59,494 nucleotides of DNA from a virus. Lineage: Duplodnaviria > Caudoviricetes. The DNA lies in the IMG/VR virus record IMGVR_UViG_3300042991_000196, positions 1-59,494 of that record, one strand, 5' to 3'. The notes beneath the pieces were generated by a model. It was given only the letters and a program-made list of their open reading frames with translations, did not search any database and was not told the DNA's origin. The position numbers and the translations under genes were made by a program. Positions 6,965 to 19,678 of this stretch are shown here, in pieces. Positions within the stretch are counted from its first letter, which is position 1. Each line of letters begins with the position of its first letter.

Positions 6965-7019
6965 TGTCCCTGCGTGCCAGCCGCCTTCGGCGTCTGGAAA
7001 TCAGGGGATTCGTATGGTT
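6965..7019 (-). repeat. AACCATACGAATCCCCTGATTT element followed by GCC-GAA-GGC stem-loop
   Basis: 18 bp identical to 15392-15409; split copy at 13797-13832. Confidence 0.8.
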
Positions 7020-7260
7020 AAATGCTTAGCTTGTTGGATTCTTTCCAGATTTGTTTAATGATGTCTGTTGATTCCTGGCTTGCTGGTGCTTCAGGATTGT
7101 TAGTTAAGGTGCAACATATGAGGATTGCTGTTCGCATGATTGCACTGTTTGATCTGAGCTTTGTCGCTGGTATGCCATGTGCGATTAGGCCATCGAGAGC
7201 TTTAGCAAATTCATGTAGGTTTACTCGAGTTGATATGGTTCTTGAATTGGCAGTTTTCAT
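7018..7260 (-). CDS. Putative ribbon-helix-helix protein (paralogue family)
   Basis: RTISTRVNLHEFAKAL..SNSAIMRTAI. Confidence 0.55.
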   Translation of the reverse strand: MKTANSRTISTRVNLHEFAKALDGLIAHGIPATKLRSNSAIMRTAILICCTLTNNPEAPASQESTDIIKQIWKESNKLSI

Positions 7261-7274
7261 GATGGTTCCTTTGA

Positions 7275-7556
7275 TTAATATTGGCTAAGATCGGCAAGTT
7301 CATATTCGCCTGATGCTATATTCTTTTTGATAGTTATTAGATTTTCGCCAAGGAATTGTTTAAGGTATTTAGATGTAGTCACGCTGGTGTTCCAGTTATT
7401 AATGTCAAGTTTGACTTTTCCTTGGATAGGTTGAAATGCGATTAAAAGATCGTATGAACTGAAGAAAATTCCTTTGGGTGTATGAAGAATGTATTGATTT
7501 AATGCCTCATTACCCCTGGAAGTGTATAGGTTTTTAATTGACTTGATGTTATCCAT
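7275..7556 (-). CDS. Conserved uncharacterised phage early protein
   Basis: NQYIL..FFSSY..IA..LD..W..SVTTSKYLKQFL pattern. Confidence 0.7.
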   Translation of the reverse strand: MDNIKSIKNLYTSRGNEALNQYILHTPKGIFFSSYDLLIAFQPIQGKVKLDINNWNTSVTTSKYLKQFLGENLITIKKNIASGEYELADLSQY

Positions 7557-7558
7557 AG

Positions 7559-7828
7559 TTAGGCCTCCTTGTTGATTGAAATGATTTCTTTGAGAGTTAT
7601 TTGCTTGACCGCTGGCATGTTGATGAACTGTATGATTTCATCTAAGATGCTTTGTGGGATGGTATTTGGCTTGTTAGAGGACATTTTTATAAGCCAACTG
7701 AGGTAAATGGTTTTGGTTAGGTCATTTAAACTGCTGGGTTTATAAGTTGGTTCAAGTTGACGAATCGCCCATAAGCCGTGGGCAAGTTGCTCTGGGCTAA
7801 GGCGTAAAGTGATTCGGATGTTTTTCAT
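7559..7828 (-). CDS. Putative ribbon-helix-helix protein (paralogue family)
   Basis: ITLRLSPEQLAHGLWAIRQLEP..SSLNDLTKTIY. Confidence 0.65.
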   Translation of the reverse strand: MKNIRITLRLSPEQLAHGLWAIRQLEPTYKPSSLNDLTKTIYLSWLIKMSSNKPNTIPQSILDEIIQFINMPAVKQITLKEIISINKEA

Positions 7829-7849
7829 GATTTAATGATCTCCTGGAGG

Positions 7850-7969
7850 TTATTCAAAACAAAATTGGATGTCTTGAAATTGTTTGTACCATGCTTCAAT
7901 GAACCACTTCGGGAGATAGGCAGGATTTTTTCGATTCATGAAGGCGATAAATCGTTTTGAATATTGCAT
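7850..7969 (-). CDS. 39-aa hypothetical protein (not in ORF track)
   Basis: MQYSKRFIAFMNRKNPAYLPKWFIEAWYKQFQDIQFCFE behind the shared AGGAGCCAATCATG start motif. Confidence 0.6.
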   Translation of the reverse strand: MQYSKRFIAFMNRKNPAYLPKWFIEAWYKQFQDIQFCFE

Positions 7970-7990
7970 GATTGGCTCCTTTGTTGAGGT

Positions 7991-17576: not shown

Positions 17577-17591
17577 GCATGAGTATGAAAA
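17544..17591 (+). repeat. (GGAGCA)5 microsatellite degenerating to TGAGCA/TGAGTA/TGAAAA at gene junction
   Basis: Encodes GAGAGAGAGA and MSMSMK across an ATGA overlap. Confidence 0.85.
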
Positions 17592-18109
17592 TGGATAGTT
17601 ATATTGGCGTAAAAGAAGTTATGGCAGTTTCAATGAATCGTCGTGATTATAATAATTATCGGGGTTGGGAATTACCCTCTGATGAAGATGGCACTGATGA
17701 AGGTTATCTTGTTGAGTATTTAGGTGGTGGTAAGGCAAATCATCTGGAACATAAAGGATATATTTCATGGAGTCCTAAAGAAGTATTTGAAAATGCTTAC
17801 CGTAAAATAAATGGAATGACTTTTGGATTAGCTATTGAAGCTGCAAAGAAAGGGCATAAAATAGCACGTAGAAAATGGAATGGTAAAAATATGTTTGTTG
17901 TATATATGGAACCATTGCAACTTCCACCCTATAACACTGAAGGAACATTTAGAAAAGTAAATGATCGTACAGCAAAATTTATTGGCGAAGATAAGCCATT
18001 AAATTGTCAGCCATATTTTGCGATGTATAATGCACAGGAAGAGTGGATTCCAGGTTGGTTAGCCAGTCAATCAGATATGCTTGATAATGATTGGTTTATT
18101 GTAAAATAA
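17573..18109 (+). CDS. DUF2829/Tad2-like anti-defence protein with N-terminal extra domain
   Basis: MTFGLAIEAAKKG.KIAR..WNGKNMFV..WLASQSDML..DW; N-terminal EGYLVEY..YISWSPKEVFE. Confidence 0.8.
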   Translation: MSMSMKMDSYIGVKEVMAVSMNRRDYNNYRGWELPSDEDGTDEGYLVEYLGGGKANHLEHKGYISWSPKEVFENAYRKINGMTFGLAIEAAKKGHKIARRKWNGKNMFVVYMEPLQLPPYNTEGTFRKVNDRTAKFIGEDKPLNCQPYFAMYNAQEEWIPGWLASQSDMLDNDWFIVK

Positions 18110-18124
18110 TTAGGGGAGCATGAG

Positions 18125-18367
18125 ATGATTAGTGCAGAACAGTTTGCAGAATGGAAAGAACATCCGGTAACAAAAGAAATCTTTAAAGAGATTCGGCAAT
18201 GTCGAGATGGACTGAGAGATCAATTAGCTGATGGATGTACACTTGGTGGTAGTTCACATGATACGCATGGACTAACTAATAGATTAGTTGGTCAATTAGA
18301 TGGACTTAATCAGTTATTAAGTATTTCTTATGCAGGGGCTGAGCTCGAGGAAGAAGCTGATAGTTAG
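18125..18367 (+). CDS. Conserved head-module protein
   Basis: EWKEHPVTK motif; between portal and GroES. Confidence 0.7.
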   Translation: MISAEQFAEWKEHPVTKEIFKEIRQCRDGLRDQLADGCTLGGSSHDTHGLTNRLVGQLDGLNQLLSISYAGAELEEEADS

Positions 18368-18412
18368 AGTGATAATTAAGTTGTGCTAATATTTATTTAA
18401 AAGGGTGATATT

Positions 18413-18742
18413 ATGGAAGAGATCAAAGACATTAATCAATCAGGGATAGTTCCTACTGGTGGGCACTTGTTGGTGATGCCTGATAAGGTAGAAGAACGAA
18501 CTAAGGGCGGAATTATTTTGCCTCAAGAAACACGGGATAAAGAACAAACGGCGGCAACAGTTGGGACTTTGATTGCTGTTGGTTCTGGTGCATGGGCTGA
18601 TATTGATGATGGCTCACCTTGGGCTATTGTTGGTGACAGAGTTAGTTATGCACGATATGCTGGTGTTTCGATGCTTGGGCAAGATAATGAAACTTATATA
18701 TTGATTAATGACAATGATGTTCTTGCAAAATTACTCTTTTAA
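18413..18742 (+). CDS. groES: GroES-like co-chaperonin
   Basis: EERTKGGIILP mobile loop, VGDRV.YARYAG, DVLA. Confidence 0.9.
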   Translation: MEEIKDINQSGIVPTGGHLLVMPDKVEERTKGGIILPQETRDKEQTAATVGTLIAVGSGAWADIDDGSPWAIVGDRVSYARYAGVSMLGQDNETYILINDNDVLAKLLF

Positions 18743-18754
18743 ATAGGTGTTATT

Positions 18755-19678
18755 ATGGCAGAAGATTTTATTGATGATATTATTGGTGGAGTAGCTGAGA
18801 TCAAGTCAGAAGCAGAAATGGTTGCTGAACTTAAAGATGCTACTGGTGAAAAAGATGCTAAGGTATCTGAACAAAACAATGGGAGCGAAGCGACCCCTGA
18901 TGAAGCTCAGGAAAGTGTTGCTAAAGGAAATGATCTGCCTGATGTTAAGGAATTAGCTACACAATTAGGTTGGAGAGAAAATCATCAAGGTGAAGATGCT
19001 GTTGATGCGGCGACATATATTTTGAGATCGAAAGATATTCAAAAGTCAATGAGTCAACATAATAAGGACTTGAAGGATCAGCTTCATGCTTTGAATAATT
19101 CTGTTAATGCGCTGAAAGTGCATAATGAAAGTGTTTATAAGGCTGAAGTAAAGAAGCTGGAGAGTGAAGTTGCTGAATTAAAAAAAGAACGTACAGCCGC
19201 GATTGAATTGGCTGATGTCGAAAAAGTTGAAGAGCTTGACAAGCAAATTGATGAAAAACAAAAAGATCTTGATGGGCCAAAAGTTACGGAACAAGTTCAG
19301 CATGTTGCTAATCCTATTTATGATGAATGGGTGAAGAATAATGGATGGTATTTAGAAAATGATGAGATGGCTAAGTTTGCTGATGCGGTAGCCCAGCAAT
19401 ATGTAGGTGCTCCGCTTGATCGAGTTTATAATCTTGTGCGAACAAAAGTACAGGAAGTATTTCCTGAAAAATTTGAAAGTGATAAGACCACGAATCAAGT
19501 TAAAACTCCTGTAGGGCCTCCAAGTCCTGTTGAAAGGTCTTCGGCAAAAGGAAATAATGTGTCATTTACTAAAGCTGATTTGACTGATAATCAAGTGCAA
19601 ATTATGAATCAGTTTGTTCGGGGTGGTATTATGACAGAAGATCAGTATATTGCTGATATTGCAAAAATGCAAGCATAA
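18755..19678 (+). CDS. Putative scaffolding protein
   Basis: Acidic coiled coil, LGW and WVKNNGWY motifs, upstream of capsid genes. Confidence 0.7.
   Translation: MAEDFIDDIIGGVAEIKSEAEMVAELKDATGEKDAKVSEQNNGSEATPDEAQESVAKGNDLPDVKELATQLGWRENHQGEDAVDAATYILRSKDIQKSMSQHNKDLKDQLHALNNSVNALKVHNESVYKAEVKKLESEVAELKKERTAAIELADVEKVEELDKQIDEKQKDLDGPKVTEQVQHVANPIYDEWVKNNGWYLENDEMAKFADAVAQQYVGAPLDRVYNLVRTKVQEVFPEKFESDKTTNQVKTPVGPPSPVERSSAKGNNVSFTKADLTDNQVQIMNQFVRGGIMTEDQYIADIAKMQA

Follow-up and report, generated by a model that had tools for sequence, protein, structure and literature searches.

The tailed phage genome held in the IMG/VR virus record IMGVR_UViG_3300042991_000196 (59,494 bp, analysed here over its whole length and hereafter referred to as the window) carries a real and unusual family of four to five hairpin-carrying cassettes of 45–65 nucleotides (nt), which stand on the sense strand at gene junctions and, in frame, within the portal and scaffold-like genes. 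Copies are present or absent at orthologous positions among related phages, they have been exchanged between sites, and the hairpin found in the portal copies of relatives has, within limits, been selected for pairing. Tentatively, we read the cassette as a cis-acting signal of the messenger RNA (mRNA) that is read on a single strand at cistron junctions; we infer both the nature of its effect and that the strand concerned is RNA, not DNA.

The cassette consists, in order, of BoxA (AACCWTACRAAT, consensus AACC-W-TAC-R-AAT), an optional hairpin (HP1), BoxB (CCTGAT-N5-CCAGG, in the fuller form (CC)CCTGAT-N5-CCAGG) and an optional second hairpin (HP2). BoxB also forms a short inverted repeat of its own, CCTG(A)...(T)CAGG. 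HP2, which belongs to the portal-type copies, is longer and GC-rich, and its outer stem uses BoxB. Five sites (S1–S5) were recognized in the phage family, four of which are occupied in the window; a fifth match in the window is doubtful:

6950..7020, minus strand: S1, spacer between the open reading frame (ORF) 7260..7018 and the ORF 6931..6629
13796..13841, plus strand: S2, terS–terL spacer
15391..15424, plus strand: S3, portal codons 5–16 (PPYESPELVQQ), in frame
18868..18912, plus strand: S4, codons 38–53 of the scaffold-like gene (NNGSEATPDEAQE), in frame
31440..31456, minus strand: doubtful 15/17 match, antisense inside an SU10-adaptor-like gene

At S1 the two boxes are contiguous, with BoxA (7008–7019) overlapping a TAA stop codon and BoxB at 6998–7007. 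They are followed by an inner hairpin of 21 nt (6977–6997; 9+GAA+9, tip CCGAAGG), which is enclosed by an outer stem, CCCTG/CAGGG, spanning 6968–7006. S2 comprises BoxA (13796–13808), HP1 (GGGG-A-GCGAAGC-GA-CCCC, 13809–13826) and BoxB (CCTGAT-N5-CCAGGA, 13825–13841), the AGGA of which lies 11 nt upstream of the terL ATG at 13853. S3 in the window has contiguous boxes and no hairpin. S4 has a degenerate BoxA (18868–18880), an HP1 one G shorter than that of S2 (18881–18897) and a BoxB of the form CCTGA-N6-TCAGG (18896–18912). At S2 and S4, HP1 is 17–18 nt long and reads GGG-GA-GC-GAA-GC-GA-CCC, that is, a GCGAAGC mini-hairpin, two G.A/A.G oppositions and a GGG/CCC stem. The preliminary description of this DNA, made from the letters alone, had listed these four copies, and its account of them holds: the contiguous copy at 6998–7019(−) is present, and the CGCC-GAA-GGCG stem reported after it is the tip of the 21-nt hairpin; the copy at 13797 is a contiguous box with the 14 bases GGGGAGCGAAGCGA inserted between AAT and CCCC; the portal N-terminal copy and the 21-bp hairpin-half copy at 18881 in the scaffold gene are in frame; and all four lie on the local coding strand.

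The same strand preference extends to the relatives: whatever genome was examined, the cassette is sense-strand at all five sites, also when a model was searched against both strands. The sites fall into gene junctions (S1, S2 and S5, 0–13 nt after a stop codon), portal codons ~5–30 (S3) and the scaffold linker (S4), the two coding sites being hypervariable linkers. BoxA begins 0 (S1), 13 (S2), 23 (S3) and 13 nt (S5) after the upstream stop codon, which for S3 is that of terL and places BoxA at the portal 5′ end; the distance from the cassette to the next start codon ranges from about −100 to +160 nt. A translated origin of S1 and S2, as read-through or as a mini-ORF, was rejected, as L004, a related locus, has two stop codons before S1 and the S2 of L013 changes frame.

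The significance of the repeat comes from its long matches, because the short pieces are not enriched (GCGAAGC alone, 3 found against 2.97 expected; the 10-mer CCATACGAAT with at most one mismatch, 5 against 3.4). The 17-mer CCATACGAATCCCCTGA occurs exactly at 7001–7017(−) and 15393–15409(+) and with two mismatches at 31440–31456(−), giving three matches where 0.06 are expected, a number that none of 100 shuffles reached. The 21-mer GGGAGCGAAGCGACCCCTGAT occurs exactly at 13810–13830 and 18881–18901, two matches against 0.00 expected from shuffles. The third 17-mer match had been put down as a possible 16/18 copy at 31439(−); the actual match is 15/17 at 31440–31456(−) and lies antisense to the adaptor codons YQGIPMA. 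In the adaptor gene of the related genome G001 this peptide is kept and BoxA is changed, and a covariance model scan of the window did not list the match at E ≤ 10. It is probably protein-driven and not a member of the cassette family.

This covariance model, based on 12 HP1-type copies and applied to both strands of the window with filters off, amounts to an exhaustive repeat search. It re-found the four main copies (S2, 65.8 bits; S4, 52.1; S1, 12.3; S3, 11.5) and added a single weak candidate at 46329–46386 (16.1 bits, E 0.044), which is coding and has no hairpin. Over 34 related loci (463,802 bases) it returned the known copies plus S3 and S4 of L004 only. These scans thus indicate a small family that is confined to the known sites. 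GC triloop and other GC hairpins number 9 genome-wide against 3.8 expected and have no common flanks in the window, and a general list of the hairpins of the window held no additional box-flanked members. Most of what a loose BoxA-gap-BoxB regular expression picked up in the window and three complete relatives was noise; one match that recurs, in the helicase genes of G001 and G002, is coding, is absent from the window and was not counted. Scanning IMG/VR with a 15-mer of the box yielded 65 loci, 8 of which belong to the cassette family, the rest being unrelated coding sequences at about the chance number. In bacterial genomes the 21-mer matched once, in a phage contig binned into a metagenome-assembled genome (L126), and the scan revealed neither a host repeat family nor a tRNA source. 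A tRNA 3′ end or att core was considered for the box and dropped, as the box has no T-stem partner and no invariant TTC, and the window has no integrase and no tRNA.

Two side observations came from these scans. The cap GGGG-AGCGAAGCGA-CCCC tops longer perfect hairpins, many of them intergenic, in unrelated viral contigs of 33–71% GC (L112, L115, L116, L117, L118, L121, L123 and L125), and an IMG/VR scan for it returned 16 loci, against a rough chance estimate of about 6. L117 carries the cap a second time, on a different stem (GCCC/GGGC), and in L116 and L123 the cap is paired with an adjacent GCTA- or GATA-looped hairpin. Separately, seven unrelated IMG/VR contigs (L057, L061, L070, L083, L092, L094 and L105) each have a small gene starting with MAKIYESPDGGKTVYVRD, the codons of which contain the box 15-mer, so an N-terminal YESPD recurs outside this phage family.

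The state of each site was read in loci obtained by an IMG/VR search with the portal (34 loci, 33–95% identity), to which motif scans added L074 and the bacterial-genome scan added L126; the whole records of three relatives were also read. At orthologous positions, where the preliminary description had looked to presence and absence as a check, each of the five sites occurs in both a filled and an empty state among the relatives. S1 is filled in three of five genomes (the window; L004, with the loop AAA; and L009, in which HP1 is GTGGGC-GCTA-GCCCAC) and empty in L005, which has a 14-nt spacer, and in L007, which has a different insert. S2 is filled at 4 of the 13 terS–terL junctions read (the window, L004, L013 and L126), a count that leaves out six loci with only an estimated terL start. 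At the empty S2 sites the terS stop codon overlaps or abuts the terL ATG (L005, L007, L010, L022 and L031), the spacer is 2–8 nt long (L006 and L009), or it is short and cassette-less (L025 and L032). Among the portal 5′ ends of 28 relatives, eight have the boxes plus 30–45 GC-rich, hairpin-forming bases (L004, L006, L007, L008, L009, L013, L022 and L074), L005 and L031 have a variant, scaffold-type cassette, and 18 have nothing; contigs of run X1 depart from the window directly past 15409 into an S3 variant of the L004 type. The S4 hairpin is found in 5 of the 22 genes read, with the same cap in the window, L011 and L006, and with GGGCAGC-TCT-GCTGCCC in L031 and GGGGGC-GCTA-GCCCCC in L009. 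It is degenerate in L008, reduced to the boxes in L004 and L029, and absent in 14 of the 22, and a contig of run X2 provides a further 7-bp allele, CGCCAGC-TCT-GCTGGCG. S5 is occupied in L029 only, where a cassette with a 7-bp GC hairpin lies between a post-capsid ORF and the next ORF; in four of the five other relatives read (L007, L008, L017 and L074) this spacer contains an AT-rich, terminator-like hairpin. Across the family, the cap GCGAAGC is present in the window, L011, L006, L013, L126, L005 and L031, and GCGCTAGC in L009; other caps are TCT, AAC, ATC, ACC and CTCA.

Within a genome the hairpins are alike, and between genomes they differ, which points to exchange between sites. S2 and S4 of the window are identical over 21 nt, and the closest relative, L004, in which the scaffold is 92% identical, has no S4 hairpin and a diverged S2. 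The S2 of L126 equals the S4 of L011 over 36 nt, including an N5 segment that differs in the window. S1 and S4 of L009 share a GCTA-looped hairpin found in no other genome. CCATAC is common to S1, S2 and S3 of the window, and CCTTAC is present in the portals of eight box-carrying relatives. In the scaffold copy, the frame upstream of AAT differs among the window, L011 and L029 and the downstream frame is fixed, which fits ready-made bases having been inserted and the frame then repaired. Copies are gained, lost and homogenized across sites, by what appears to be short-patch gene conversion. As to their source, Y-E-(S/F)-P stands at the portal N-terminus across the wider family (distant relatives read YEFPVEELVDPG), and the portal box is therefore ancestral coding sequence; by comparison of the copies, the other sites look like duplicates of the portal gene 5′ end.

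Could the boxes then be no more than a peptide motif, [ST]-P-D-x-x-Q, shared by portal and scaffold, with chance supplying the rest? The family-wide Y-E-(S/F)-P, the P-[DN]-Q repeats at the portal N-terminus, the inherently palindromic codons CCT GAT CAG G, the ordinary codon conservation of the box and the YESPD encoded by the same 15-mer in unrelated IMG/VR proteins are all in keeping with this. However, S1, S2 and S5 are untranslated, two stop codons precede the S1 of L004, and the frame of the L013 S2 relative to the upstream gene differs. Moreover, the identities of 21 and 36 nt join coding with non-coding copies, and the hairpin persists while the peptide varies (GSEATP, GSSAAL and GALAP). 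The intergenic copies largely refute this explanation, to which we give hardly any credence. Amino-acid conservation or chance, which the preliminary description had named as what would undo its claim, fails for the intergenic copies and applies in part to the portal copy, given its ancestral Y-E-(S/F)-P and ordinary codon conservation.

The common insertion point AAT^CCCC at S2, S4 and the S1 of L009, and the coexistence of contiguous and split boxes, would also suit a homing-like arrangement in which BoxA plus BoxB is the recognition site of an endonuclease or nickase and the hairpin inserts split and protect it. A candidate enzyme is encoded in the window:

2038..2538: free-standing HNH endonuclease

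This arrangement leaves HP2 and the pairing selection downstream of the boxes unexplained, and we think it very unlikely.

The pairing itself was examined in the portal-type hairpin, using an 11-row alignment and 500 column shuffles. In the alignment, 79.6% of the cells are paired against 70.6% in the shuffles (reached by 1/500), the covariation score is 0.155 against 0.088 (1/500) and 8 cells, against 3.1, have changes on both sides (2/500), with the caveat that related sequences may exceed shuffles without any structure. Slid registers gave 29–47% pairing, and the number of pairs with a double change (4) was not significant (138/500). The tip stems CGCGC, CCGGC and GGCGC and the 6-bp TCGGCC of L006 pair perfectly at one place. 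When the portal 5′ ends were rewritten with synonymous codons (300 recodings each), the native fold was reached by at most 12 recodings in five of the eight hairpin-bearing portals (L013, 9; L022, 2; L009, 0; L006, 0; L008, 12); no excess structure was seen in L007, L004 and L074 (76–99 of 300) or in the window (200 of 300), and among distant box-less relatives 1 of 13 stands out (L021, 1/200). The portal-type hairpin has thus been selected for pairing, within these limits. For HP1 the argument is qualitative: its position holds at least five unrelated perfect stems of 4–7 bp despite a changing encoded peptide, and the HP1 types occupy different registers in the alignment. Among the window copies, S1 is the only one to fold better than its shuffles (RNA, −21.5 kcal/mol, z −2.76, 0/200 shuffles as good; DNA, −12.6, z −3.14).

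This result bears on an explanation that needs no function at all, namely a self-copying hairpin cassette resembling repetitive extragenic palindromic (REP) sequences, Rickettsia palindromic elements (RPEs) or GC clusters, spread by gene conversion among a few permissive sites. Such a cassette would survive only where it is harmless, in spacers and disordered linker codons, and its hairpins would reflect its mode of copying. Much of the comparative record is what it would leave: filled and empty states at all five sites, hairpin types alike within and different between genomes, a scaffold copy whose upstream frame differs in three genomes and whose downstream frame is fixed, and portal hairpins lost from the window without visible damage. 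The direct repeats in S2, S3 and S4 would expose the copies to deletion and are hard to see as designed, and longer hairpins with the same GGGG-AGCGAAGCGA-CCCC cap exist in viral contigs that are unrelated. On the other side, a Pfam search of the 71 ORFs of the window found no RNA polymerase, integrase or transposase, including HUH/Y1 enzymes and the REP-associated tyrosine transposase (RAYT), and the free-standing HNH endonuclease and an intein are all that it offers. The compensatory changes are at one orthologous site with constant flanks and look like selection for pairing in place, which suggests selection and not a purely selfish element. The five sites share the sense orientation, a uniformity with a chance of ~1/16, and the non-coding S1 spacers of the window and L009 have BoxA and BoxB conserved, although the two portals use the same codon at just 58% of identical residues. 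We hold a purely self-copying cassette to be possible but unlikely. The tiny mobile repeat tolerated in disordered coding regions, as the preliminary description had put it, accords with the filled and empty states, the likeness of hairpins within genomes and the hypervariable linkers; mobility finds no mobilizing enzyme, and tolerance alone does not account for the compensatory portal changes.

Under the mRNA reading, which we tentatively prefer, the cassette would be read on a single strand, our best guess being that of the mRNA, and the folded hairpin would bring BoxA and BoxB side by side. The cassette would mark cistron junctions as a processing, stability or protein-binding signal and may tune the amounts of the adjoining cistrons, orf7260, terS, terL, portal and scaffold. 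Where genes abut, the junction hairpin would be forced into the dispensable first codons of the next gene, which would explain the portal copy. In favour of this reading, S1, S2, S3 and S5 all start 0–23 nt after a stop codon and are all sense, and the position of the S5 cassette is taken in relatives by a terminator-like hairpin. A putative RNA site for protein binding, one of the functions suggested at the outset, would be compatible with the strand and the position. The cassettes are not intrinsic (Rho-independent) terminators, as they have no U-tract, and the sole site listed by a terminator scan at a cassette is antisense (18897–18882).

Several observations weigh against this reading. 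No U-tract or T-run follows the cassette hairpins on the sense strand, and the terminator scan flags none there. S4, 125 nt past the previous stop codon, misfits a junction role, and the portal of the window has no hairpins, so that any function is dispensable. S2, S3 and S4 alone are not more stable than shuffles (z −0.11, +1.39 and −0.56), the covariation of HP1 is not significant on the sequence alignment (68.6% paired against 66.9%, reached by 93/500 shuffles), and the portal of L025, which has no boxes, is also highly structured (0/300 recodings). The codon conservation of the portal box is unexceptional: only one codon is used in 100 of 494 comparable columns (20%), and runs of three such columns occur four times elsewhere. 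There are 5 G.T and 4 A.C cells, a lack of wobble asymmetry that makes no call between RNA and DNA or between strands. The phage is present in cave and biofilm samples; none of the sequencing runs listed as containing this stretch is an RNA run, which counts neither for nor against this reading. Finally, the recurrent caps GCGAAGC, CCGAAGG and GCGCTAGC are of the DNA mini-hairpin type GCGNAGC/GCGNNAGC, whose stability as DNA greatly exceeds that as RNA (melting temperatures of 76.5 °C and 39 °C for a related octamer; PMC13037366).

This last point leads to a DNA-based explanation, in which the cassettes are single-strand DNA initiation signals for a RepB-family primase of the phage, as are the single-strand initiation (ssi) sites ssiA and ssiB of RSF1010. 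The window encodes a candidate:

48490..49506, minus strand: RepB_primase-domain protein (Pfam PF16793, 26.2 bits against a cut-off of 24.3, E 8.7e-6; PHROG 'DNA primase')

On unwound DNA, the primase would bind to the 5′ box and to the foot of the mini-hairpin, and the primer would start in the 3′ box. In the 40 nt of ssiA, RepB′ binds a 6-nt box on the 5′ side, a 21-nt hairpin with the tip CCGAAGG occupies nt 7–27, and the primer starts at T32 (PMC8567376; PMC13037366). By this description, the S1 inner hairpin agrees in its 21-nt length and its tip and is flanked by conserved boxes, and the caps fall into the mini-hairpin class GCGNAGC/GCGNNAGC (PMC13037366). In addition, S1 is opposite in strand to S2–S4, the two groups flank iteron-like repeats, and the lagging-strand template is the sense strand of the co-oriented genes.

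The distribution across relatives argues against priming. Orthologues of the primase are found in G001, G002 and G003 (78–80% identity) and in G007 (62%), yet the copy number is 4 in the window, 3 in G002, 2 in G003 and 1 in G001, and G007 shows no cassette in portal or scaffold. The primase was not found in G006 and G008–G012, which likewise lack cassettes, and the association is thus inseparable from phylogeny. The copies lie 2.4–7.5 kb from the iteron-like repeats at 10780–11400, with three on one strand and not one per strand inside an origin; no T is present within 15 nt 3′ of the S1 hairpin; and the S5 cassette replaces a terminator-like hairpin. The Pfam assignment of the 48490–49506 protein is borderline, and no PDB sequence matched the protein at E ≤ 1. 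The GC-skew switch at ~5.4–5.9 kb is also away from S1; skew was set aside as a pointer to an origin there, being ~1.1–1.5 kb off and inside the helicase gene. Thus, of the priming signals suggested in the preliminary description, the basis in the literature (the ssiA hairpin and RepB′) and the RepB_primase match stand, against which are set the 1–4 copies among primase bearers, the portal and scaffold of G007 and the distance from the iterons. We regard the priming explanation as doubtful, and as improbable its full form, in which hairpin-directed priming of the IncQ kind would operate in a dsDNA phage of ~60 kb through signals dispersed on the lagging-strand template, some of them in frame in portal and scaffold, and co-evolving by gene conversion.

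The iteron-like direct repeats at 10780–11400 are GTG-rich and densely packed, at a period of ~10–11 nt (repeat families D2, D3, D5 and D7). Beside them, at 12250–12750, a 37-nt repeat occurs three times, each copy with a leftward promoter-like site (TTGACA with a 17-nt spacing). Together these probably form the origin and early-promoter region. The skew sign change lies just upstream of an intein-like insert (residues ~284–523) in the UvrD-like helicase encoded at 3750–6113(−); this insert scores 28.6 bits with Pfam Intein_splicing, under the cut-off of 35.8.

The cassette has no exact known counterpart, its nearest likenesses being REP and RPE repeats and the IncQ ssi signals. Compared with RSF1010 ssiA and ssiB by description only, it appears to share the layout of a 5′ box that would be single-stranded, a GC-rich hairpin capped C-GAA-G (21 nt at S1, as in ssiA, but 17–18 nt at S2 and S4) and a 3′ tail, and its genome encodes a protein with a borderline RepB_primase domain. 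It differs in that the RSF1010 sites are found one per strand in the origin, next to the iterons; the cassettes are three plus and one minus in the window, with one clear copy in G001, and they occur inside structural genes, number 1–4, and are not visible in one primase-bearing relative. REP sequences and their composites, the bacterial interspersed mosaic elements (BIMEs), are short imperfect palindromes dispersed at operon junctions, and REP can stabilize mRNA; RPEs are 100–150 bp long and have dozens of copies, in a sequence family shared with Rickettsia. The cassette resembles both in being a short, dispersed palindromic element at junctions with presence/absence polymorphism. Unlike REP, which is extragenic, has many copies and goes with a RAYT gene, it has 4–5 copies, two of them intragenic, and no HUH/Y1 protein among the 71 ORFs. 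Like RPEs, it places hairpins in frame, here in the portal and scaffold linkers, that are absent from the same position in relatives, but it is 45–65 nt long, occupies at most five sites and has no Rfam match. It further differs from both in its conserved, non-palindromic boxes derived from the 5′ end of a resident gene, and in that its host genome is a phage.

Phage junction signals provide further comparisons. The start-associated and extended start-associated sequences of Cluster K mycobacteriophages and the RNase III sites of T7 are extragenic, at a fixed distance from a start codon or processing site. They share with the cassette that they are phage-specific, sense-strand elements repeated at junctions, some with inverted repeats, and are thought to act on mRNA or translation; by contrast, the distance from cassette to start codon is variable and two cassette sites are translated. 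The promoters of the N4 virion RNA polymerase have a 5–7-bp stem and a 3-nt, purine-rich loop, lie on the template strand upstream of early genes and go with the gene for that polymerase. The hairpin type is similar, but the cassettes are on the coding strand and mostly in late genes, and neither PHROGs nor Pfam revealed any RNA polymerase family in the window, where the 2294-aa protein matches ART-PolyVal only. Lambda nut sites combine a boxA consensus with a 15-nt boxB hairpin that has a pentaloop, just downstream of early promoters. The cassette has different boxes and tri- or tetraloops, its S1 is ~5.5 kb from the early promoter-like sites at 12250–12750, and it has no Rfam match. A literature search for in-frame palindromic elements in phage genes gave nothing relevant among the matches listed. 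As for d(GCGNAGC)/d(GCGNNAGC) mini-hairpins, the caps GCGAAGC and GCGCTAGC fit their consensus (PMC13037366); these are a structural class rather than a biological system, and the caps TCT, AAC, ATC, ACC and CTCA misfit it.

According to PHROG and Pfam annotation, the genome in which the cassettes lie, with a GC content of 38% and an estimated completeness of ~90%, is that of a tailed phage with three gene blocks distinguished by strand:

1–12.5 kb, minus strand: block 1, with Sak4-like, PD-(D/E)XK exonuclease, HNH endonuclease and UvrD-like helicase (with intein) genes and many small ORFs
12.8–47.3 kb, plus strand: block 2, with terS, terL, portal, Tad2-like, GroES-like, scaffold-like, capsid and SU10-type adaptor genes and the 2294-aa ART-PolyVal protein
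47.3–59.5 kb, minus strand: block 3, with ThyX, RepB_primase-domain protein, DUF3987 protein, family-A polymerase and methyltransferases
13099–13782, plus strand: terS
13853–15367, plus strand: terL
15378–17576, plus strand: portal gene
18755–19678, plus strand: scaffold-like gene
20732–21652, plus strand: capsid gene

The window has no tRNA or tmRNA, and a scan of both strands against Rfam 15 families at gathering thresholds gave no match. No close relative turned up among GenBank phages at the DNA level, where the single match was the gene for a Tad2-like (Thoeris anti-defence 2, DUF2829) protein at 17573–18109(+), between the portal and scaffold genes. This gene is the sole part of 12.7–19.7 kb with GenBank phage DNA similarity (Vibrio phages, 66–74% identity). 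The 2294-aa protein of the structural block (40388–47272(+)) has its ART-PolyVal ADP-ribosyltransferase domain at residues 1003–1170. A GC-rich island at 23000–30000 (46–55% against 38% overall) contains a lysozyme gene and two large ORFs (1082 and 449 aa), with a weak endosialidase beta-barrel match, and is probably an acquired receptor-binding module. The ORF 34097–34837 contains a 63–69-bp unit in four tandem copies (34156–34434(+)). In block 3, the family-A DNA polymerase (53169–55745(−)) has an N-terminal uracil-DNA glycosylase (UDG)-superfamily domain, and the protein encoded at 58450–58908(−) has a dATP/dGTP diphosphohydrolase N-terminal domain; with ThyX, these hint at a non-canonical nucleotide metabolism. 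An 87-nt repeat of 70% identity (50260–50346 and 51008–51094) links the ORFs 49978–50490 and 50723–51178, which are likely to be paralogues.

If functional, the cassette would be a nucleic-acid signal written into the dispensable first portal codons and the scaffold linker of a phage, and one cis-element would be common to the genes of three proteins and to one early gene. It would also offer a small, testable system of two conserved boxes joined by an exchangeable hairpin. If it acts on DNA, a tailed phage would join IncQ plasmids and single-stranded DNA phages in using hairpin-directed priming; a selfish cassette would be a rare, clean RPE-like in-frame palindromic insert in phage structural genes, with empty and filled alleles visible in metagenomes. 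Whichever holds, annotators should take note that the GC-rich stretches, rich in Gly, Ala, Pro and Arg, at the termini of these proteins are dictated by nucleic-acid structure and not by protein function.

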